This document shows positions 1-7,938 of a DNA stretch of 7,938 nucleotides, piece after piece. The position numbers and the translations under genes are program-made. This DNA is from a virus. The stretch spans positions 1 through 7,938 of the IMG/VR virus record IMGVR_UViG_3300022690_001911. One strand, given 5' to 3'. A model generated the notes under the pieces. That model did not search any database. It worked only from the letters and a program-made list of their open reading frames with translations, and was not told where the DNA came from. Every line of letters begins with the position of its first letter. Positions within the stretch are counted from its first letter, which is position 1.

Positions 1-144
1 CTTTCAGTACCGGATGGACTTTTTTAATGTTTGTGGTTGTTAATGAAAAGTCCCAATTGTGGTGCCGATGCATATCAAACGCCGCGTAAATATCCTCGGG
101 CCTGTCGTCTTTTTCGGCTGCTTCGGCTCCATTTGGGTAATCAA
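1..144. repeat. Terminal redundancy, copy 1 (identical to 7795-7938); circular-assembly overlap
   Basis: Base-by-base comparison shows all 144 nt identical. The repeat lies inside one continuous reading frame (zot-like), which is not how a biological repeat would sit. Confidence 0.95.
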
Positions 145-466
145 AGGCTTTCATTTCTTTAGCCGTTAATTTGGGGTTCCAGATGCGCTGTACTTCATCA
201 ATACAGATGTAAGCCCCTTTCGGTGCCCAATGAAAAAAACGAGCCATTTTCTGACGATTAACTGACAAATCCGTATCAATATAAATAACTTCCCAATCGG
301 GATGAACCTTATCCTTGCCCAGAACTTTAATGGCTTTTTCTTTGCTGAAACCCCGCACATTCGTGACCAGCGTCCGCCCCTGTTCAATTACCTTTAAAAT
401 GTCGTCCTTAATGGCGCCAGAGGTCTTATAGGTGCCACCAGGGCCGTGATGTATTTTTATGCTCAT
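1..466 (-). CDS. zot: Zot / pI-like assembly ATPase, 5' (N-terminal) part. It continues across the circular junction into 7037-7794, giving a full protein of 407 aa
   Basis: This frame is missing from the ORF track because it runs off the window edge. ATG at 466-464. Translation: MSIKIHHGPGGTYKTSGAIKDDILKVIEQGRTLVTNVRGF... The P-loop GPGGTYKTS maps to 419-445 and the Walker B ICIDE to 194-208. The N-terminus closely resembles my recollection of V. cholerae CTXphi Zot (MSIFIHHGAPGSYKTSGA...). The frame at position 1 is contiguous with ORF 7037-7867. The ATG overlaps the upstream gene's TGA (ATGA at 466-463). Confidence 0.9.
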   Translation of the reverse strand, partial: MSIKIHHGPGGTYKTSGAIKDDILKVIEQGRTLVTNVRGFSKEKAIKVLGKDKVHPDWEVIYIDTDLSVNRQKMARFFHWAPKGAYICIDEVQRIWNPKLTAKEMKAFDYPNGAEAAEKDDRPEDIYAAFDMHRHHNWDFSLTTTNIKKVHPVLK

Positions 467-786
467 TTAGTAAAGAACCCCATCACAAAGCGCGTCACTA
501 AGGCGTTCAGCACTAAATTAAGTCCCGATGTTACGTTAAAAAAATCGAGCTTATTTCGGACATCGACGGGTAATCCCACCAACGCAGTGTTAATTTTTTG
601 GCTTATTTGAAGGTCAAGAATAATATCCTTGGCAATATCCCAACTAAACTGAATTAAATCAGCCTGAATATTCAAGCGGAATAACGTCCACTTCACAATA
701 ACGTAACTCATGAACTGAACCGCAAAATCATATATACCTTCAGTAAGCCAACTGTAAATTGCTTGTATACCGTCTAAAAATTCCAT
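463..786 (-). CDS. Minor coat / assembly membrane protein, pVI-like (Ace / DUF2523-like), 107 aa
   Basis: Sits between the pIII-like and zot-like genes. The protein is hydrophobic. The segments YSWLTEG, QFSWDIAKDII and LVLNALVTRF resemble recalled CTXphi Ace (YDWLIDG, QFFWEMSQKVI, IVLQALMTRF). TAATG overlap with pIII-like at 788-784 and ATGA overlap with zot. Confidence 0.8.
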   Translation of the reverse strand: MEFLDGIQAIYSWLTEGIYDFAVQFMSYVIVKWTLFRLNIQADLIQFSWDIAKDIILDLQISQKINTALVGLPVDVRNKLDFFNVTSGLNLVLNALVTRFVMGFFTK

Positions 787-2177
787 TAGTTACGACTCCT
801 TAATATAATAAAGCCCGAGAGACACACAAACATAAATAAAATGGCATTGGCCAACACGCTCATTTCATCCGAAAACTCATCTAAACAAGCCGTGTGAACA
901 ACCCCAGCCACCTTAGCAATGTTAGAACACCCCGCAAACGAGCCAGTACCCGAAGAAATGGACGGAATCAGCGCACCAGCCTCACTCTTAATCGTTGAGA
1001 TAGCTGTTGATAACGCTGTCTTGGCCGCTACGATTTCAGCCTCTACCGCCGCAATATCAAAGGTTCCGGCAGTGCCTTTAACAACCTGTAGCGCTTTGTT
1101 GATTTTCTTTAATTCGTCTTCAACCGTGGATAAATCGACTCCTGGCGCTGGGTCGGTGCCTGGGTCTGGGTCGGTGCCTGGGTCTGGGTCGGTGCCTGGG
1201 TCTGGGTCTGGTTCAGGGTTAGGTGTGCAGTTACCTAAATCATCGCAAGTTTCGCCGATATCAGGCTGGCCGTTTTGATTTTTATCAGGGTCAATAATGC
1301 CATCGCCATCACTGTCTGAATCGGGAATTCCATTTTGATCGACATCCGTATCAAAACAATAAAAAACACCATTTACATAACCGCAATTTGGTGTGCATAT
1401 ATTACCTTCACAGTAATCATTAGGGTCAGCAGCACAGACCAATGAGCCATCGCCCATCGTAGAGCATGAATTAGGTGACGGCTCATTAATTGGCGAGTTA
1501 CCGTCTGTTTGCGGGAGTGGCGCATCTGGCTGATAGCATGAGCCCTCGGAGGGGGATAGAGTTAGCCCGTTGCTAGTCATATGACACACCGCCCCGCTGC
1601 CATCCGATGGACCAACACAGGCATTATTATTTAAACCCAGTGTGATACCCGAACCTGGAAACGGAACAACCGCATCCCACGGGCAAGAATTATTTGTTGC
1701 TGTAGCTAAATCAATATCAGACGGGTTGTAACATAGGTCATCTTCACCATCACCATTGGAATCATCACCGTATGTAAGAAGCGGAAAATCTGTTGGCGGA
1801 CAGCTTTTACCATCGGAGGTTTCAACATAATCAAAAGGATTTGAGCCGTAATACGTGGTTGTAGAGCCGCCACCATTAAAAAAACAATAATACTCGTTAC
1901 CTTGCTTGAGTTGGACAATGCGACAATCTAACGTAGCAGCAAACGCAGCTATCCATTGGTCCAGCATGTTATCCGTACAATAGTTATATTGAGCCTCGGG
2001 AGACAAAGAACCCTCACCGCTAGCAGCCCCTATAAAATCCCCCATCAACGAACATCTAAGAGTCCATGTTCCAGATGGTTTTGGTGGTTCACCCGACACA
2101 CCCAGCGATTGAACATAAGAAACCGCAAACGAATTGGCACTAACTAACAACAGCAACCCTAAAAATAAATAACGCAT
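786..2177 (-). CDS. pIII-like adsorption / minor coat protein, 463 aa from the ATG at 2177
   Basis: Signal peptide MRYLFLGLLLLVSANSFA. Cys-rich N-terminal domains. Asp-rich DxDxDG repeats. A PD/PGTD low-complexity linker. C-terminal hydrophobic anchor ILFMFVCLSGFIIL followed by a basic tail RSRN. Sits directly after the major coat gene. GGTGG Shine-Dalgarno (SD) 6 nt upstream of ATG 2177. The track's TTG start at 2192 lies inside the terminator U-tract and is unlikely. Confidence 0.85.
   Translation of the reverse strand: MRYLFLGLLLLVSANSFAVSYVQSLGVSGEPPKPSGTWTLRCSLMGDFIGAASGEGSLSPEAQYNYCTDNMLDQWIAAFAATLDCRIVQLKQGNEYYCFFNGGGSTTTYYGSNPFDYVETSDGKSCPPTDFPLLTYGDDSNGDGEDDLCYNPSDIDLATATNNSCPWDAVVPFPGSGITLGLNNNACVGPSDGSGAVCHMTSNGLTLSPSEGSCYQPDAPLPQTDGNSPINEPSPNSCSTMGDGSLVCAADPNDYCEGNICTPNCGYVNGVFYCFDTDVDQNGIPDSDSDGDGIIDPDKNQNGQPDIGETCDDLGNCTPNPEPDPDPGTDPDPGTDPDPGTDPAPGVDLSTVEDELKKINKALQVVKGTAGTFDIAAVEAEIVAAKTALSTAISTIKSEAGALIPSISSGTGSFAGCSNIAKVAGVVHTACLDEFSDEMSVLANAILFMFVCLSGFIILRSRN
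1150..1203. repeat. Perfect 3 x 18-bp tandem repeat (gggtcggtgcctgggtct) inside the pIII-like gene, encoding (PGTDPD)x3; degenerate flanks extend to 1141-1215
   Basis: Units at 1150-1167, 1168-1185 and 1186-1203 are identical. Translation on the minus strand gives EPDPDPGTDPDPGTDPDPGTDPAPG. Confidence 0.95.
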
Positions 2178-2190
2178 TTTGACCACCGTC

Positions 2191-2225
2191 AAAAAAAAGA
2201 TAAAAAAATAGCGACCGAAGCCGCT
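2191..2225 (-). terminator. Rho-independent terminator downstream of the major coat gene
   Basis: Minus-strand RNA: AGCGGC-UUCG-GUCGCU, a 6-bp stem with one G-U pair and a cUUCGg tetraloop (2210-2225). It is followed by AUUUUUUUAUCUUUUUUUU (2209-2191). The position matches the Ff terminator after gene VIII. Confidence 0.8.
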
Positions 2226-2302
2226 TATCTAAGCATGTAAAAACCCGATGCTATTCCAATCACTAGGGCCATGGCGGACATAGCCCCGAGAAAAACAGCC
2301 AC
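2225..2302 (-). CDS. Possible 25-aa hydrophobic peptide (pVII/pIX-size), GTG start
   Basis: GTG at 2302-2300 overlaps the coat gene's TAG (TAGTG). Translation: (M)AVFLGAMSAMALVIGIASGFYMLR, stop TAA at 2227-2225. It is below the ORF-track size cut-off. Support is only hydrophobicity plus the coupling geometry. Confidence 0.3.
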   Translation of the reverse strand: MAVFLGAMSAMALVIGIASGFYMLR

Positions 2303-2532
2303 TAGATCTTTTTAACAATGCCGACGATTAAACCGATAACAACCAAACTCGCCACCGTACCGATAACAAACTGACCAGTTGTTAATGCGTCAGATTCAGC
2401 CGAAGTAATAGCCGCACCTACGGCAACCGTGTCAACCGCTGAGGCAACCGAGGCAAACATAGCCGTACCCATAGCCACAGAACCAACAGCCATTTTCTTT
2501 CCAAATTTCTTCATTGCGTTAAATTTTTTCAT
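2302..2532 (-). CDS. Major coat protein (pVIII-like) precursor, 76 aa; predicted mature form 44 aa
   Basis: Basic, hydrophobic signal peptide ending in ASA. The mature form VDTVAVGAAITSAESDALTTGQFVIGTVASLVVIGLIVGIVKKI has an acidic N-terminus, a hydrophobic core and a basic KK C-terminus, which is the classic inovirus coat layout. It is followed by a strong terminator. Confidence 0.9.
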   Translation of the reverse strand: MKKFNAMKKFGKKMAVGSVAMGTAMFASVASAVDTVAVGAAITSAESDALTTGQFVIGTVASLVVIGLIVGIVKKI

Positions 2533-2534
2533 AA

Positions 2535-2768
2535 TTATCTCTTAAGTTTAGTTAGGATTGCTAATATCCATCCGATGCCCAAGCCAATCACTAGACTTTG
2601 CAACACTGCCCCATAAGCCAAGTCATAAGCTTCGGCATCGAAAGAATTTGATAATAAACCCGCGTCATATTCGTTATGCGTAACAAGCACATAAGCCGTA
2701 CACGAATCTATTGTTTCTGACGATTGCGTTAAAACCCCTTTGGAGTTTAATTTTACGCATAACGCCAT
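2535..2768 (-). CDS. Hypothetical 77-aa protein with a C-terminal TM anchor (possible minor virion or morphogenesis protein)
   Basis: The ATG at 2768 overlaps the upstream TAA (TAATG). C-terminus: LQSLVIGLGIGWILAILTKLKR. Sits immediately upstream of the major coat gene. Confidence 0.6.
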   Translation of the reverse strand: MALCVKLNSKGVLTQSSETIDSCTAYVLVTHNEYDAGLLSNSFDAEAYDLAYGAVLQSLVIGLGIGWILAILTKLKR

Positions 2769-2911
2769 TAAAATTTGCTCACTTTATTTGAGCGTTTCGA
2801 TTTCTTGGCAAAATGAAAGGCCGCTAAGGCATTAACAAAAACAACAATAATAACAACCATAAAAAACGAAATGGTCTTAATTAAAGCGTTGTTTTCTATT
2901 AAAAAATCCAT
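2768..2911 (-). CDS. Hypothetical 47-aa small membrane protein (below the ORF-track cut-off)
   Basis: Hand translation: MDFLIENNALIKTISFFMVVIIVVFVNALAAFHFAKKSKRSNKVSKF. It has one TM segment plus a basic tail. The stop TAA at 2770-2768 overlaps the next ATG by 1 nt, and the ORF fills an otherwise unexplained 160-nt gap. Confidence 0.5.
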   Translation of the reverse strand: MDFLIENNALIKTISFFMVVIIVVFVNALAAFHFAKKSKRSNKVSKF

Positions 2912-2928
2912 AAAATGCCCCGAAACTA

Positions 2929-3231
2929 TTAAACCGCTGCTTTGTCGCTAAAACCGACTATATTCATAACCATTTCATTTTTCTTAACAATGGTTTCGAC
3001 CTCACAAATCACAATGCCAGGAATTAAGCCAGCTTTAGCCAACGCTTTAACAATTTGGTTTTCGTTCGCGGTTGAAATTTTTACTTTTGCCGTCTTCTGA
3101 CCAACATCAATGCGATCATCTGTAATCTGGTCTGCCTGATTATCATCAAGAATTTGAGCGCTGGCGTACAGAAGACCACCATCCTCGATTTTGCCCCCTG
3201 ACAAGCTCAATATATTCATTGGAAATTTCAT
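2929..3231 (-). CDS. 100-aa protein in the position of the inovirus ssDNA-binding protein (gV/RstB analogue); function inferred from position only
   Basis: First gene of the structural operon. AGGTG SD 6 nt upstream of ATG 3231. Size is typical for phage ssDNA-binding proteins. I recognise no diagnostic motif. Confidence 0.6.
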   Translation of the reverse strand: MKFPMNILSLSGGKIEDGGLLYASAQILDDNQADQITDDRIDVGQKTAKVKISTANENQIVKALAKAGLIPGIVICEVETIVKKNEMVMNIVGFSDKAAV

Positions 3232-3260
3232 TTTTTACACCTTGATTTGATTAAGTGAAA

Positions 3261-3273
3261 CAGTGACACACTG
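3261..3273. promoter_or_regulatory. Second palindrome CAGTGACACACTG (5-3-5), centred about 38 bp from the first
   Basis: Read directly from the sequence. Shares the TGACACA half-site with 3298-3312. Confidence 0.45.
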
Positions 3274-3284
3274 AAACTGAGTGC

Positions 3285-3313
3285 AATGTAAATCACCTGA
3301 CACAATGTGTCAA
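3285..3313 (-). promoter_or_regulatory. Sigma70-type promoter for the structural operon: TTGACA-N17-TACATT
   Basis: On the minus strand the -35 box TTGACA is at 3313-3308, the spacer is exactly 17 nt, and the -10 box TACATT is at 3290-3285. This lies about 55 nt upstream of ATG 3231. Confidence 0.6.
3298..3312. promoter_or_regulatory. Perfect 7-1-7 palindrome TGACACA-A-TGTGTCA (operator candidate) overlapping the -35 box and spacer
   Basis: Read directly from the sequence. A related palindrome, CAGTG-ACA-CACTG, lies at 3261-3273 and shares the GTGACACA core. Confidence 0.6.
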
Positions 3314-3373
3314 TTTATTTATTGTGACGCATACTATAAAATCACACCTCCAGATAATAAAAAGGTTTGAAAA

Positions 3374-3562
3374 ATGTCTAAAACCAAGACGCTAAGAGCT
3401 AGATTGGACGATGCAAAAATAATAGAGCAAGCCGTGAGAGTGCTTGCAGCAGAGCTTCAGAGGGAAGTTACTGTCAGTGAACTTATAAGGGAATTAGTAA
3501 AGTATGTGCCGGAAGCTTCGAAAGGAATTAAAAAAAGATTTACTGAAACTAGCGAAAAGTAA
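3374..3562 (+). CDS. Ribbon-helix-helix (CopG/Arc/MetJ-type) transcriptional regulator, 62 aa; the only plus-strand gene
   Basis: KTLRARLDD (beta strand), then AKIIEQAVRVLAAEL (helix), then a loop, then VSELIRELVKY (helix). This fits the RHH pattern, including the common SE(L/F)IRE signature. It is divergent from the structural-operon promoter and operator. Confidence 0.65.
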   Translation: MSKTKTLRARLDDAKIIEQAVRVLAAELQREVTVSELIRELVKYVPEASKGIKKRFTETSEK

Positions 3563-3617
3563 AAATATTACGTACAGACGATTAAAAAAAAGGATGTTGT
3601 TATAGGGATATAAAATT

Positions 3618-3639
3618 GAGCAGGTTATAAAATCTGCTC
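3618..3639. terminator. Hairpin GAGCAG-N10-CTGCTC between the convergent RHH and rep genes (weak bidirectional terminator candidate)
   Basis: Perfect 6-bp stem. The minus-strand side is followed by AAUUUUAUAU; the plus-strand side has a poor U-tract. Confidence 0.35.
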
Positions 3640-3643
3640 ATTT

Positions 3644-3737
3644 AGTACCAATTTCGACGTGCCGGCGCAACGCCAGGTTTCAAAATCAGTACCTATTTTT
3701 GTTATCGATGTCGCCCAGGGAACAGCAAATCAGTACC
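3644..3737. repeat. Iteron cluster A: AGTACC at 3644-3649; a 34-nt element TGCCGG-N7-CCAGGT-N8-CAGTACC at 3660-3693; CCCAGGGA-N10-CAGTACC at 3714-3737
   Basis: Read directly from the sequence. The same motifs recur in cluster B (6866-7036). The cluster abuts the rep stop codon. Confidence 0.8.
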
Positions 3738-5353
3738 TAATCACCTGCATTTTTTGTCATTTGCTCATATTTATTGACATAATTCGGCTGGTAAAATCGA
3801 CTTTGCGACAACATAAGATCAGCCTCCGCATTAATTTTTTCAGAACCTAGAGTGCAAGGTTTTTTATAATAAATTTTGCCGTTCATATTGATTTGATCAT
3901 CCAAATCATCATCGTTATTAGCATCGCCACGCGACAGAAAATCAATATAAAATTGTTCAAAGGTATAACGACCATTATCATCATCAACAAAGCCATAACA
4001 ATACCGCGCAACAGCATCAATGCCGCCGTTGGTTATGATATCGAGCAATAATGGGCGCTGCTTACGAGCTTGAATAATTTTCCATTCGTAGGGCAATAAC
4101 AAGCATTGTAAAATGGCTTTGTCTTCTTCTTGCTGGATGATTTCCGCGTCGGTCAATTCTTTAGTGTTTGCCATGCCTAAGTCTTTTCGCAAGTTACGCG
4201 ACCACTTAATCATTGTCTTACCATGCATTGCCCTGGCATATTGCAAAAATAACAACCAATTAAATTTCCTGATCTCTTTGGTTTCGCCCTCCTCAATTAA
4301 CGACAATATTTCCCACGGCGTGATCGACTTAGATCGACCATTTTTTTTATTTCCCTTGGTCATTTCGTCGGCCATGTCCCATGTGATTTTTTTACCCGTT
4401 TTAGTCTCTAAAATTTCATCATCAGAACCGTATTTATTGATATATTCAGAGGCTTGAGAGCCATTTTGTAAGTCCATACCAAACAAATTTGGCTTTTTTA
4501 ATCCCGCGTTTAAGCAGTGACCCTGCCAGCGCTCAAGAATCCTGTCCCATTCGGGATCTTGATTTTTTTGCAAACGACCAACCAAGGTTCTTTTCGTTAC
4601 GGGTAACGGTTTTTTACTGAAAACAATAATATGAAAATGCGGATGCCAACCATTATCGCCGTATCGAACTTCAAGCGTTCTAATGTTGCCGACAATGCCA
4701 TAACGTTTCTTGAATCGTGTAGCTACATTGTTGCGCCAAAATTCGCGCAAAGCCGCATTCATTTTATCGACCAAAACTTCAATTTTATCAGTAACATAAT
4801 GAGGCGCGGTAAACGTCAGCAACTGAATATTCAACCCTTTTTCTTTTGCTAAATCAAAGCCTTCACGCATTTCGTTAGCCTTACGTTCTGCCAACTTATC
4901 AGAGCAAATCGGGCACGTATGGCCATTGCCGCAATTCATCAGGCCGCCGTAAAAATATTTGCCGTTGGTTTTTGATTTTAAAATCTCAGTTGTGGTCGAC
5001 AAACGGAATCCGGTACAACTACAAGTACGGTGATGAATATCGTAACCTTTCACGTTTTTTCGAGTCGTTTCACTGTAAGAATAGAGGGTTTTTTTCGCTA
5101 TTTCATGAAGCTCGAAACGAATACGACGAGTTCGTGAAATTGATTCGGACTCAGTGAGCGCGCGCACTTCAAGCAGTTCGCCAGTCTCTTTATCGAGAAA
5201 ATTCCTGACCAATTTTAGAGGGGGGGTGGTGCGTAAGTCCGTAGCATTACCAAGTGCGCCCGTCTTCGACGGCTGCGCTGCGGTGCCGTTGCTCCTCGCT
5301 AGCCTCTCTTGAGGGCTTGCTATTGTTTTTAATAGTTTGCTATCATTGCTCAT
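3737..5353 (-). CDS. Rolling-circle replication initiator, HUH endonuclease superfamily (pC194/Rep_1-like, RstA/gII analogue), 538 aa
   Basis: Motif 1 LLTFT. HUH motif GWHPHFHIIVF (His codons at 4631-4645). Candidate catalytic Tyr in SEYINKYGSDDE (about 4430-4453). Upstream Cys/His cluster HHRTCSC...NCGNGHTCPIC, which looks like a zinc ribbon. This is the largest ORF and sits upstream of the structural module, as in inoviruses. Confidence 0.85.
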   Translation of the reverse strand: MSNDSKLLKTIASPQERLARSNGTAAQPSKTGALGNATDLRTTPPLKLVRNFLDKETGELLEVRALTESESISRTRRIRFELHEIAKKTLYSYSETTRKNVKGYDIHHRTCSCTGFRLSTTTEILKSKTNGKYFYGGLMNCGNGHTCPICSDKLAERKANEMREGFDLAKEKGLNIQLLTFTAPHYVTDKIEVLVDKMNAALREFWRNNVATRFKKRYGIVGNIRTLEVRYGDNGWHPHFHIIVFSKKPLPVTKRTLVGRLQKNQDPEWDRILERWQGHCLNAGLKKPNLFGMDLQNGSQASEYINKYGSDDEILETKTGKKITWDMADEMTKGNKKNGRSKSITPWEILSLIEEGETKEIRKFNWLLFLQYARAMHGKTMIKWSRNLRKDLGMANTKELTDAEIIQQEEDKAILQCLLLPYEWKIIQARKQRPLLLDIITNGGIDAVARYCYGFVDDDNGRYTFEQFYIDFLSRGDANNDDDLDDQINMNGKIYYKKPCTLGSEKINAEADLMLSQSRFYQPNYVNKYEQMTKNAGD

Positions 5354-5420
5354 GCAATACGACCTTATAGCTGTCCAGGGTGGTTCCTAGACTTAAAGCT
5401 TGGTTAAATTGTTTCTGAAG

Positions 5421-5450
5421 GGGCTATCGGTGGTTTACGTCGATAGTCCC
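5421..5450. other. Imperfect 10-bp inverted repeat (GGGCTATCGG ... CGATAGTCCC; 9/10 pairs, 10-nt loop) about 70 nt upstream of the rep start
   Basis: Read directly from the sequence. There is no U-tract, so it is not a typical terminator. Confidence 0.5.
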
Positions 5451-5466
5451 GAAATCTTTCTAGATA

Positions 5467-5613
5467 CTAATCTTTTTCTAAATTCTTGTCATCTTCTGTA
5501 TTTTTCTTCTGAATATAACGTCTTACAAAATACCTCGATTCCAACTTAAAGACCGCCCGACTGTGAAACGGCGATTTCACCAAATCCAATAAATCAATAA
5601 AGAAACGCTTCAC
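5467..5613 (-). CDS. Possible 48-aa basic protein, GTG start
   Basis: GGAGG SD 7 nt upstream of GTG 5613-5611. Translation: (M)KRFFIDLLDLVKSPFHSRAVFKLESRYFVRRYIQKKNTEDDKNLEKD. It starts 4 nt after the upstream ORF's stop. Below the ORF-track cut-off. Confidence 0.4.
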   Translation of the reverse strand: MKRFFIDLLDLVKSPFHSRAVFKLESRYFVRRYIQKKNTEDDKNLEKD

Positions 5614-5616
5614 TTT

Positions 5617-5742
5617 CTACCCTCCCCGCACACGCTGAAATAACGACCTAAAAAACGGAAAAACAAGCACTGAACCACACAAAACTATCAGACCAAAAAG
5701 CAAATCGAACGTAAAAAGCCAATCAACAAAATTATCTATCAT
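5617..5742 (-). CDS. Possible 41-aa small hydrophobic protein
   Basis: AAGGAA SD about 9 nt upstream of ATG 5742. Translation: MIDNFVDWLFTFDLLFGLIVLCGSVLVFPFFRSLFQRVRGG. One TM segment. Below the ORF-track cut-off. Confidence 0.4.
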   Translation of the reverse strand: MIDNFVDWLFTFDLLFGLIVLCGSVLVFPFFRSLFQRVRGG

Positions 5743-5887
5743 TTTAAATATTCCTTTATTCAAACGTTTCTCTATCGTGCTTAATCAGAGTAAACAGTGT
5801 GCGCTGTTAGCCTTTAAAGACTAAAACCAGTTAATTAGGGAAGGGGAAAAAGAAGTTAATGTATTTGCTACGCAAAGACGGCAAAGA

Positions 5888-6484
5888 CTAGTTCGCATTC
5901 TTCTTTTTAGTTACGAGTAACGCTTTAAGCCCGATAGCTTCAACTTCACGATCAAGAAACATACCGTCATCATTTTGATATTTCACATCGGCAAACGCCG
6001 CATATGCCAACGCGACAATCGAATTCAAATCAAGCCCCGCCTCAAGCATCATCCTATAACGCCCACCTTCCAGACTCTCTAGCGACTTAGAAACATGAAC
6101 GATACCAGTTTCCTTTTTCTTTAAACGTGCCTTTTTGGCCCTCTCAGCGCCAGACATGGCATTACCTGAAGAAGGTCGACCACGCTTTTTAGGCATATTA
6201 TCAAGTTGTAGCTGAATTTCTTCCTTAACAACAGGCTCAGGCTCGATGCTCACTTTAAAATCATCATCTTCGTTAATGTATGCCACAGCAGCACGCTTAA
6301 GACCAGCCAACGAACCATCACACTTTAATGTCACGCCAGACTGAATATTATCAATATCCCCCTCCTGCTTAATCAGGAACGTTTCAGCGTCTTGATTCCA
6401 CTGAATAAACGCAAGCCTATTGTAGCCCTCTTTAATTTCCAGCGTGTTAGTACCTAACTTTCTGACATTTCGTGTAGTGATCAT
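5888..6484 (-). CDS. Hypothetical 198-aa protein with a central AT-hook-like basic segment (PKKRGRPSSGNAMSGAERAKKARLKKK); putative DNA-binding regulator
   Basis: The preferred start is ATG 6484, which has an AAGGAG SD (6499-6494) and lies downstream of a TATAAT promoter. The track's TTG 6541 and the ATG at 6514 both fall inside that promoter. The GRP-x(n)-MS-x-AER-basic pattern recalls small plasmid and phage regulatory proteins; this is from memory and not verified. Confidence 0.7.
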   Translation of the reverse strand: MITTRNVRKLGTNTLEIKEGYNRLAFIQWNQDAETFLIKQEGDIDNIQSGVTLKCDGSLAGLKRAAVAYINEDDDFKVSIEPEPVVKEEIQLQLDNMPKKRGRPSSGNAMSGAERAKKARLKKKETGIVHVSKSLESLEGGRYRMMLEAGLDLNSIVALAYAAFADVKYQNDDGMFLDREVEAIGLKALLVTKKKNAN

Positions 6485-6512
6485 TTCTTGAATCTCCTTA
6501 GTTGATGTAACC

Positions 6513-6541
6513 ATTATATCGTTACGCGTAACAATAAACAA
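6513..6541 (-). promoter_or_regulatory. Sigma70-type promoter TTGTTT-N17-TATAAT with the palindrome GTTACGCGTAAC in its spacer
   Basis: On the minus strand the -35 box TTGTTT is at 6541-6536, the spacer is 17 nt, and a perfect -10 box TATAAT is at 6518-6513. It probably drives the 198-aa ORF, and possibly the small ORFs and rep as well. Confidence 0.6.
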
Positions 6542-6639
6542 GCATTTTCGTTACGAATAACAATAAATCATCAACTTTTTTCGTTATGCGTATCATTAAT
6601 TAACTTTTCCAACCGAGCATTTGCGCTGTCACGCGTAAC
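6521..6639. repeat. Array of four related about-18-nt repeats with a 12-bp palindromic core: GTTACGCGTAAC (6521-6532), GTTACGAATAAC (6550-6561), GTTATGCGTATC (6583-6594), GTCACGCGTAAC (6628-6639), each followed by an A/T-rich AATAAA-like tail
   Basis: Read directly from the sequence. Start-to-start spacing is 29, 33 and 45 bp. The array spans the promoter of the 198-aa ORF and the 3' end of the 89-aa ORF. Confidence 0.85.
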
Positions 6640-6840
6640 AATTAAATCACTGACTTCTGCAATAACCTGCTCTAACTCCTCAATCCTAGCCTCCGCATTG
6701 TCAGCCCTAAGCTCATTAGCCTGACAGTTCGTTATGGCCCATAACGCCGCCTTGCTGGACGTACCAACCTCAGCGCGGTACTTTAATTCATTAATTAAAT
6801 TCAAAAACTCTTTAGTGTCATTATCAATTTTTACCAGCAT
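6571..6840 (-). CDS. Hypothetical 89-aa protein, predicted coiled coil
   Basis: AAGGAA SD 5 nt upstream of ATG 6840. A heptad-like acidic and basic helix (ELRADNAEARIEELEQVIAEVSDLI). First gene after the main intergenic region. Confidence 0.65.
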   Translation of the reverse strand: MLVKIDNDTKEFLNLINELKYRAEVGTSSKAALWAITNCQANELRADNAEARIEELEQVIAEVSDLIVTRDSANARLEKLINDTHNEKS

Positions 6841-6865
6841 CTTAATTCCTTGGTTTCATTAAGTT

Positions 6866-7036
6866 ATGGTACTATTTTAGCAAATAACTGATCGATGTAA
6901 AGGCTTTTTAGTACCATTTTTAGCTTTTATTTTCCCCAGGGACTTTAAAATCAGTACCAAAACAAACCCAGTGAATTTAACTTTGGTACTAATTTTAAGT
7001 TGCCGGTCGCGCGCCAGGTGCGTTAAACAGTACCAA
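6866..7036. promoter_or_regulatory. Main intergenic region / iteron cluster B (candidate origin, packaging signal or attP region)
   Basis: Inverted pair ATGGTACTA (6866-6874) / TAGTACCAT (6909-6917). CCCCAGGGA-N10-CAGTACC at 6934-6958. Inverted pair TTGGTACT (6983-6990) / AGTACCAA (7029-7036), which encloses the second copy of the 34-nt element (7001-7034). This is the largest non-coding gap after the assembly gene, like the Ff intergenic region. Confidence 0.7.
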
Positions 7037-7938
7037 TTACTCAAACCCGGACGTAGCCTGGGGCGCAGAATTAGTACTGTAAAAAGCGGCCTTAGTCTTG
7101 TTTAACCCACAAAAAACAGACTGGATTTGATCCTGATAAACCAAATCAACCAGACACGCCGTTTTGCGTAACACCTTAAATCCCATCAGGACCAAGTCAT
7201 CACTGTTAAAATGATACTCAGCCTGATTAATGGTTCCCGCAAACATATAAATGGACTGATTACGACCAGTGCTTAACACGGCCCCAGTGACCCAAATATC
7301 ATCGAAACGGCTTAAGTAAGGCATAGCTGACACATCAAACATTAAACCGCCGCCATCGCCATCAACCACCGCACGCTGAACGCGATCACCTTTATCACCA
7401 CTATTAGAATTAACACCCGAAACAGCACTTTCACCAGTAGCCAATGGAGCGCCTTTTTCAGCCGTGGCCACGTCCTTATTTTTACCCATCGAAACAGCGT
7501 TAGGTGCGTCTGCAAAAACAAGCAAATAAGTCCATATAGCGACCACAAACAATAACATGCCTGCAATTTTAGGGTCCTTAAAGATGCTTGTTCCCGCAAT
7601 CGAGTCGCTAACTTCCCCTGTTTTAGTCGATTCGTATAACTCAAAAATGTAGCTGGGTATTTTCTTATTTTTGACTGATATTTGATTAGAAGCAGAGGTG
7701 CCGTTATTTTCTTTATCATGAGTAATTTCCTTGTATCTGCCCTTGATCCCAATCACGGCCATGTTGACGTGACGATAGGCCATTTCCGTGTTTTCTTTCA
7801 GTACCGGATGGACTTTTTTAATGTTTGTGGTTGTTAATGAAAAGTCCCAATTGTGGTGCCGATGCATATCAAACGCCGCGTAAATATCCTCGGGCCTGTC
7901 GTCTTTTTCGGCTGCTTCGGCTCCATTTGGGTAATCAA
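7037..7938 (-). CDS. zot: Zot / pI-like assembly ATPase, 3' (C-terminal) part; the frame stays open to the window end, and 7795-7938 duplicates 1-144
   Basis: Same frame as 1-466 across the junction. Contains the single TM segment MLLFVVAIWTYLLVFA followed by a C-terminal, presumably periplasmic, domain, as in pI/Zot. Stop TAA at 7039-7037. The track's Met at 7867 is internal (residue 132 of 407). Confidence 0.9.
   Translation of the reverse strand, partial: DYPNGAEAAEKDDRPEDIYAAFDMHRHHNWDFSLTTTNIKKVHPVLKENTEMAYRHVNMAVIGIKGRYKEITHDKENNGTSASNQISVKNKKIPSYIFELYESTKTGEVSDSIAGTSIFKDPKIAGMLLFVVAIWTYLLVFADAPNAVSMGKNKDVATAEKGAPLATGESAVSGVNSNSGDKGDRVQRAVVDGDGGGLMFDVSAMPYLSRFDDIWVTGAVLSTGRNQSIYMFAGTINQAEYHFNSDDLVLMGFKVLRKTACLVDLVYQDQIQSVFCGLNKTKAAFYSTNSAPQATSGFE
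7795..7938. repeat. Terminal redundancy, copy 2 (identical to 1-144)
   Basis: Same as copy 1. The offset between copies is 7,794 bp, which is the genome length. Confidence 0.95.

Follow-up and report, generated by a model that had tools for sequence, protein, structure and literature searches.

Which protein recognizes the palindromes that surround one of the promoters in the virus record IMGVR_UViG_3300022690_001911 of IMG/VR, and what might it control there? The whole stretch of DNA that was analysed, positions 1 to 7,938 of that record (7,938 nucleotides, nt; hereafter the window), contains four related 12-mer sites, named O1 to O4 (6521–6639), at and upstream of the promoter of a gene encoding a 198-amino acid (aa) protein, together with further copies inside distant genes. 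The initial annotation of this DNA, made from the sequence alone, had proposed a dimeric DNA-binding protein acting at a multi-operator autoregulated promoter and at remote sites. Comparative sequence evidence now supports that proposal and narrows it to one protein. That is, we consider it likely that O1–O4 are operators of the phage's own 198-aa protein.

Palindromic sites in the window

The positions and sequences under which the sites had initially been listed were correct throughout (Table 1). Five sites in the window match the perfect palindrome GTTACGCGTAAC with at most one mismatch, against 0.014–0.02 expected under composition and Markov-1 to Markov-3 models, in agreement with the initial estimate of about 0.02, and in 2,000 simulations per model not a single run reached even three such sites. 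When up to two mismatches were allowed, nine sites were found versus 0.30 expected, a number reached in 0 of 200 shuffles; two of them, the 2-mismatch sites starting at 2752 and 7161, had been absent from the initial list. The half-sites GTTAC and GTAAC occur six times at a gap of 2 bp (0.26 expected) and never at gaps of 0, 1, 3, 4 or 5 bp. The strict GTTAC-N2-GTAAC spacing is therefore as expected from a protein dimer of fixed geometry. The two central bases are variable (CG, GG, GA, AC, GT), both in this phage and in its relatives. Furthermore, the copies within coding regions do differ in codon register, as had been pointed out, reading GTT-ACG-CAT-AAC in the 77-aa open reading frame (ORF) versus G-TTA-CNC-GTA-AC in rep, in the 198-aa gene and in zot.

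The perfect palindrome, O1, was confirmed to sit inside the 17-nt spacer of the 198-aa gene promoter. The description of this promoter as near-consensus holds for its -10 box, TATAAT, and for the spacing, but not for the -35 box, TTGTTT, which matches TTGACA at three of six positions and was hence not listed by a promoter scan. Likewise, the four repeats had been said to cover the promoter, and this is true of O1 alone: O2 lies just upstream of the -35 box, and O3 and O4 fall in the 3′ end of the neighbouring 89-aa gene. The start-to-start distances along the array are 29, 33 and 45 bp. All four sites are in direct register and share AT-rich flanks (tttTC-GTTACGCGTAAC-AATAAA), which suggests that an operator unit may have been duplicated. 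A degenerate version of the O1 promoter unit, TTTATTGTGACGCATAC-TATAAA, was seen on the plus strand at 3311–3342, upstream of a 62-aa gene whose product resembles ribbon-helix-helix (RHH) proteins. Its palindrome is short by one base and adjoins a -10-like box; cross-regulation, or a relic, are both possible.

Conservation of the layout among relatives

A first homologue search returned three proteins, which share only the C-terminal ~75 residues of the 198-aa protein. Only 33 proteins reached E ≤ 0.001 when 1.8 billion cluster representatives were searched exhaustively with HMMER; a scan of viral contigs with the full 198-aa protein found nothing, and tblastn of GenBank phages and PLSDB plasmids with the DNA-binding domain described below gave no match. 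Further homologous loci were obtained through profile-based searches and collection scans, and the comparison set comprised 17 distinct loci with upstream DNA.

The homologues reside in elements of several kinds. Plasmid-like contigs with ParA and Mob_Pre encode one (L002, L009, L010), as does the plasmid-like L005, the first ORF of which looks by eye like a Mob_Pre/MobV relaxase, without a family match. L032 (1–2644) is a 2.6-kb rolling-circle plasmid made up of a Rep_1-type Rep, a 78-aa ORF and a 109-aa family member consisting of the domain only. Inovirus prophages or genomes encode the homologue directly after zot (L006, L014/L015, L018, L019, L025, L033 and L034), and some of the motif-bearing inoviruses have Rep_trans replication genes. 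Two of these prophages are found in Colwellia sp. Bg11-28, with the regulator gene directly after zot and with identical operators (L033 9929–10522 and L034 10001–10594); one adjoins an integrase and dus, the other lies near a ribosomal protein operon.

An O1-type palindrome was present in the regulator's own promoter spacer at all 17 loci, at -43 to -48 from the ATG, where it fills the spacer and abuts a (g/a)TATAAT box; absence of the motif from relatives that carry the regulator, which the initial annotation had named as speaking against its proposal, was thus not seen among these loci. A second palindrome occurs at -72 to -77, that is, about 29 bp further upstream, in 15 of the 17 loci. 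The -35-like hexamers are TTGACT, TTTACT or TTGATT, and a ribosome-binding region of the ACTAAGGGGAAT type is conserved ahead of the ATG. In L032, GTTACGCGTCAC occupies the promoter spacer and a second palindrome, GTGACACGTCAC, is located downstream of the -10 box. Since chance would yield a perfect 12-mer about once in 17 Mb, it does not explain why the palindrome recurs in replicons that are unrelated, each time at the same promoter position. Co-occurrence with homologues of the 198-aa protein, raised initially as a point to check, was borne out: the motif accompanies the C-terminal domain into Rep_trans inoviruses, ParA/Mob plasmids and the Rep_1 plasmid. By way of control, the two phages with the closest Rep proteins but without a homologue of the 198-aa protein have no site and one 2-mismatch site, respectively.

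In most relatives, two operators at the promoter are accompanied by a single internal site (+324 to +330), which encodes V-T-(R/G/S)-N. The window has four operators in the promoter region versus two in relatives, O3 and O4 being extras found in this phage only. The 3′ operator, located 563 nt after the ATG in the window with perfect half-sites, recurs in both other genes that share the N-terminal domain of the 198-aa protein, at +567 in L005 and +583 in L031 (perfect in both). The three copies stand in different coding contexts, in a differing frame or just outside the ORF; therefore, selection acts on the DNA and not on the peptide.

Other relatives, which have a different N-terminal domain, contain internal operator-like palindromes between their two domains, coding for V-T/S-R/G/S-N (L002 7936, L003 789, L009 592, L016 588, L025 2824, L027 2700 and L006 10331). 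The internal site of L006, GTTTCGCGAAAC, is a perfect palindrome unlike that element's own promoter operators (ATGTCGCGACAT). For those relatives that have an internal operator, the possibility of a short isoform starting inside the gene, at the Met of NMPKK, was rejected, this residue being Ile in about half of them. L013 (476–730) encodes a seemingly standalone 70-aa homologue, the upstream DNA of which still encodes DDLAIESTCEVVIVPRND, and its apparent promoter site corresponds to the internal operator. It looks like a remnant of a disrupted full-length gene.

Covariation of operator and protein

Four operator classes with the same layout were distinguished, A (GTTACGCGTAAC), B (GTGTCGCGACAC), C (ATGTCGCGACAT) and D (GTTTCGCGACAC). 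Among the 15 aligned proteins to which an operator could be assigned, class A is set apart from the other classes by exactly one column, namely the residue that follows AER in a basic helix. All nine class-A proteins have Ala at this position (Ala116 in the window), whereas each of the six others has Ser or Cys. That is, GTTAC half-sites go with Ala, and GTGTC, ATGTC and GTTTC half-sites with Ser or Cys. In a neighbour-joining tree computed without the discriminating column, the class-B protein of L014 sits within the class-A clade, and the operator switch therefore occurred at least twice. The strand-like segment LVTVNSTL, which follows the basic helix, does not track operator class.

The 198-aa protein and its C-terminal domain

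The 198-aa protein begins with a domain of ~95 aa that is predicted to be mostly β-strand and is common to only two other proteins, P0046 (L005) and P0009 (L031). The C-terminal part is very probably the DNA-binding domain of an undescribed family of marine filamentous phages and plasmids, as judged from the conservation and covariation described above. Its conserved sequence reads EIQLQL..(M/I)PKK.GRP....A(L/M)(S/T)GAERAKKAR.KKK, followed by LVTVNSTL (IVHVSKSL in the window) and then by two helices. Its PKKRGRP motif is AT-hook-like, as would suit the AT-rich flanks of the sites, and the strand-helix-helix module probably dimerises the protein. The AlphaFold2 model of the domain showed the basic helix, an undefined segment of 10 residues and two C-terminal helices, with a mean predicted local distance difference test (pLDDT) score of 75.6; in the monomer model (predicted template modelling score, pTM, 0.37) the basic helix is followed by coil (40–49) and two helices (50–61 and 66–79).

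A literature search for the 12-mer returned only cloning primers, and one on inoviruses and Colwellia returned nothing on the 198-aa protein family. The predictions made here would give a specific function and a DNA code to this protein family without annotation, members of which are encoded on small marine plasmids and, directly after zot, in Colwellia and other marine inoviruses. Moreover, they provide a pair of specificity classes for swapping, Ala with GTTAC and Ser or Cys with GTGTC.

Proposed regulation and alternative explanations

In the model that we favour, the C-terminal domain of the 198-aa protein would bind GTTAC-N2-GTAAC, presumably as a dimer. With O1 in the spacer and O2 beyond the -35 box, occupancy of the two sites would exclude RNA polymerase from a promoter that has an ideal -10 box and ideal spacing. 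Such promoter occlusion would therefore amount to negative autoregulation, and we infer repression rather than activation at this promoter. O3 and O4 may add to the cooperativity of binding and could, in addition, impede transcription reading through from the 89-aa gene promoter. The five remote sites (one each in rep, in zot and at the 3′ end of the regulator gene, and two in the 77-aa ORF) may be auxiliary sites for the same protein, most likely acting by looping with the promoter array or by modest control or damping of neighbouring units, small ORFs and rep included. Any function of the remote sites, whether in looping or as part of a global-regulator role, is putative. In this model, a filamentous phage would have a compact circuit of regulation ahead of its rep gene; to our knowledge, little has been established about how chronic infection is regulated in environmental inoviruses.

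Several observations weigh against this model. O2 and O3 have two mismatches each and so are possibly weak sites, and the O1–O2 spacing of 28–31 bp corresponds to a non-integral number of helical turns, such that cooperativity is not self-evident. No convincing promoter adjoining the remote sites was found by a promoter scan and inspection, and, outside the regulator's own gene, remote sites are lacking from most homologous loci. The covariation is that of a single column in 15 related sequences. As for the protein itself, it could be assigned to no meaningful family in Pfam, PHROGs or NCBIfam, profile searches of PDB with the domain gave only non-significant matches or repeat-protein artefacts, and Foldseek of both AlphaFold2 models versus PDB and BFVD returned nothing usable; with a pTM of only 0.29–0.37, the models do not predict a fold confidently.

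The 198-aa protein could alternatively be a genome-wide regulator or DNA organiser, in the manner of KorA/KorB or omega, and not a simple autorepressor. Its nine sites would then coordinate rep, morphogenesis (77-aa ORF and zot) and its own synthesis, or serve to condense or segregate the replicative form, the array doubling as a centromere-like site. There are five remote sites where ~0.3 are expected, and three of the five have both half-sites intact. L005 also has five extra sites, two of them perfect; the 3′ operator is kept in all three genes with the shared N-terminal domain, and the array consists of four direct units with common AT-rich flanks. Nevertheless, the regulator's own gene is the sole location of sites in most family members, the phage encodes no partner ATPase, no recognisable promoter adjoins the remote sites, and those with two mismatches could be due to chance (0.24 expected). 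We consider this role unlikely. It is compatible with the data, and it would extend autorepression by the 198-aa protein, not replace it.

Another protein might bind the sites, be it the coiled-coil-like product of the 89-aa gene, the 62-aa RHH-like protein or a host factor. The neighbouring 89-aa gene shares DNA with O3 and O4; in sequence, the 62-aa protein shows an RHH-like pattern, and the degenerate operator-like unit at 3311–3342 lies at the promoter of its gene. Apart from the 198-aa protein, however, the only window proteins with homologues in motif-bearing loci are the structural Zot and pVI; the Rep, 89-aa and 62-aa proteins have none in any of the others. The 89-aa and RHH proteins, which the initial annotation had put forward as candidate binders, are thus not conserved with the motif, and the site of a host factor would not co-vary with a residue of a protein encoded by a mobile element. 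It is very improbable that any of the three is the binder.

Even less credible is the view, raised initially as an alternative, that the repeats are iterons, i.e. origin-binding sites for the Rep_1-family initiator. They are direct repeats with an iteron-like spacing of ~30 bp, and one copy is inside rep. Rolling-circle Reps of the Rep_1 family, though, act at a nick site and not at iteron arrays. The same motif and layout were found in elements whose replication genes are Rep_trans or of other kinds and which have no homologue of this Rep, the phages with the closest Reps lack the motif apart from the one weak site mentioned above, and the sites overlap the promoter spacer in every locus. The least probable explanation is that the palindromes form RNA or single-stranded DNA structures (a terminator, an attenuator or a minus-strand origin hairpin): the minus-strand RNA of 6505–6650 folds somewhat better than shuffles (z = -2.1) and O1 and O4 are able to pair, but this z value is a trivial outcome of repeated self-complementary units, a 12-mer can form a stem of no more than 5 bp, with a loop of 2 nt, O1 and O2 are upstream of the transcription start in all loci, Rfam gave no match, and the covariation is with a protein residue and not between RNA pairs.

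Genome organization

Bases 1–144 of the window are identical to 7795–7938. Given this exact terminal redundancy of 144 bp, the window therefore contains a complete circular genome of 7,794 bp. It is the genome of an inovirus (Inoviridae), as seen from the terminal redundancy, from matches to Rep_1 and Phage_Coat_B, and from the presence of Zot and DUF2523 on the same contig. A megablast search of GenBank phages with the whole window gave no match. Every gene but one is on the minus strand (Table 1), and two small ORFs are listed between the 198-aa ORF and Rep in the gene order. The start of the 198-aa gene is supported by alignment with L005 and L031. For the 89-aa protein, Pfam, PHROGs and NCBIfam contained no meaningful family.

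Table 1. Coordinates of the palindromic sites, promoters, genes and putative domain in the window
Feature	Position	Strand	Description
O1	6521..6532		GTTACGCGTAAC, perfect palindrome; in 17-nt spacer of 198-aa gene promoter; starts 48 nt before ATG
O2	6550..6561		GTTACGAATAAC, 2 mismatches; 29 bp upstream of O1, just past -35; position -77 from ATG
O3	6583..6594		GTTATGCGTATC, 2 mismatches; within 3′-terminal codons of 89-aa gene
O4	6628..6639		GTCACGCGTAAC, 1 mismatch; within 3′ end of 89-aa gene
3′ operator (predicted)	5910..5921		GTTACGAGTAAC, 1 mismatch, both 5-bp half-sites perfect; final codons of 198-aa gene, 563 nt after ATG
Remote site	4596..4607		GTTACGGGTAAC, 1 mismatch, both half-sites perfect; inside rep (peptide PLPVTKR)
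Remote site	2673..2684		GTTATGCGTAAC, 1 mismatch; inside 77-aa ORF
Weaker remote site	2752..2763		TTTACGCATAAC, 2 mismatches; start of 77-aa ORF
Weaker remote site	7161..7172		GTTTTGCGTAAC, 2 mismatches; near 3′ end of zot
198-aa gene promoter	6541..6513	-	TTGTTT (6541-6536), 17-nt spacer (6535-6519), TATAAT (6518-6513)
198-aa gene	6484-5888	-	AAGGAG Shine-Dalgarno sequence 6499-6494; ATG at 6484
DNA-binding domain (putative)	5990..6196	-	Residues ~97-165 of 198-aa protein: AT-hook-like PKKRGRP, basic helix SGAERAKKARLKKK including Ala116, strand-like segment, two helices
89-aa gene	6840-6571	-	Upstream of 198-aa gene; 3′ end holds O3 and O4
89-aa gene promoter	6901-6874		TTTACA-16-TAAAAT
Rep	5353-3737	-	Rep_1 family, 538 aa
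62-aa gene	3374-3562	+	RHH-like
100-aa protein		-	Single-stranded DNA-binding-like
Small coat-region ORFs		-	One is a Phage_Coat_B protein
pIII-like protein		-	468 aa
DUF2523 protein		-	pVI-like
Zot	466 down to 1, then 7794 down to 7037	-	407 aa; crosses circular junction

Some further repeats were observed. The gene for the pIII-like protein contains, at 1123–1224, an 18-nt tandem repeat that codes for (PGTDPD)n; flexible linkers of this sort are typical of inovirus adsorption proteins. A second repeat family, unrelated to the palindromes, has the sequence AATCAGTACC(T/A)A and occurs in seven copies versus 1.2 expected. The region that separates the 62-aa gene from the end of rep contains copies at 3640, 3684 and 3728, spaced at exact intervals of 44 bp, and that separating zot from the 89-aa gene contains four to five (6868, 6907, 6949, 6980 in inverted orientation, and 7025). 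A GC-rich element, GCCGG..GCGCCAGGT, is common to both intergenic regions (3660–3679 and 7001–7023), and one of its copies is flanked by an inverted repeat (6945–6961 / 6982–6998; 17 nt, 94% complementary). The AATCAGTACC(T/A)A repeats (3640–3742 and 6868–7039) are candidate origin, packaging or Rep/RHH-binding elements.

Comparison with known systems

The proposed circuit is reminiscent of a copy-control repressor gene ahead of a rolling-circle rep, such as that of CopG in pMV158-type plasmids. CopG is a small dimeric repressor encoded upstream of rep, and its pseudo-palindromic operator overlaps its own promoter. Like the copG-repB unit, the 198-aa regulator gene lies upstream of a rolling-circle rep, and both this phage and plasmid L032 pair the regulator with a Rep_1-type Rep. 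By eye, the C-terminal LVTVNSTLSE...G(Y/F)(D/N)L(N/S)SII..A also resembles the RHH pattern. However, hhalign of the domain versus CopG gave a probability of 0.3%, no RHH family matched in Pfam at E ≤ 0.1 to 1, and neither profile searches of PDB nor Foldseek against PDB gave an RHH chain. RHH proteins contact bases through an N-terminal β-strand, which would not seem to apply here: the strand-like segment does not covary with operator class, and the specificity-linked residue is in the basic helix, N-terminal to the putative strand and not within it. The 198-aa protein differs, moreover, in its additional 95-aa N-terminal domain, and its family has two to four operators ~29 bp apart versus one for CopG.

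CopB/RepA2 of IncFII plasmids (PF10723 RepB-RCR_reg, PRK13702) is likewise a small basic repressor of a replication-gene promoter, in which a similar motif, G(R/K)P..(S/T)..E(K/R), precedes a strand and helices. Two distant superfamily members, P0016 and P0028, scored below threshold with the CopB/RepA2 profile hidden Markov models (E ~0.02, 14–16 bits versus cut-offs of 21 and 87); the 198-aa protein and its close family did not match these models, and hhalign of the domain versus R1 CopB gave a probability of 1.5% over 18 residues. KorA/KorB (IncP) and omega (pSM19035) are global regulators of mobile elements, with an array of 12–13-bp palindromes or repeats at their own promoter and at remote places. 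The 198-aa protein would be similar in being encoded by the element and in having sites at the promoter of its own gene as well as at several distant positions of a small replicon, but the phage has no partner ParA.

Among the inovirus repressors, RstR (CTXphi), Pf4r and FpsR (SW1) are helix-turn-helix (HTH) or CI-like proteins that are usually divergently transcribed. The 198-aa protein shares with them a location between the morphogenesis and replication modules and its being phage-encoded, but its gene is co-oriented with rep and it matches no HTH family; the divergent 62-aa gene is what we take to be the more obvious RstR-like candidate.

The best PDB profile match to the domain, non-significant at E = 0.26, was the basic region of NFIL3/E4BP4, a basic leucine zipper (bZIP) protein of the proline- and acidic amino acid-rich (PAR) type. 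The family sequence (G/N)-A-E-R-(A/S/C)-K-(K/R)-A-R can be aligned with the signature of bZIP proteins, N-x-x-A-A-x-x-(S/C)-R, such that the covarying residue falls on the second Ala, and the PAR consensus RTTAYGTAAY has half-sites equal to GTTAC and GTAAC. The domain differs from bZIP proteins in having no heptad leucine zipper (the basic helix ends after ~15 residues in the AlphaFold2 models), in operator half-sites 2 bp further apart, and in an Arg instead of Ala at position i+3. The relation is therefore to be taken as a lead, that is, as resemblance and not membership. A bolder proposal would be that the family is an unrecognised prokaryotic DNA-binding domain, neither HTH nor RHH, in which a GRP arm and a bZIP-like basic helix read PAR-type GTTAC/GTAAC sites, with Ala versus Ser/Cys switching specificity, and that the nine-site protein acts as a global regulator coupling replication and assembly genes to its own level. 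As a whole this is doubtful, if possible; were the basic helix indeed the reading head, it would count as a DNA-recognition module new to the bacterial repertoire and might offer orthogonal repressor-operator pairs. Set beside the known systems, an autoregulated promoter with palindromic operators is an ordinary type of circuit. The present one stands out for its uncharacterised family of DNA-binding proteins, an unusually clear in silico specificity code and the phage-specific expansion to nine sites.

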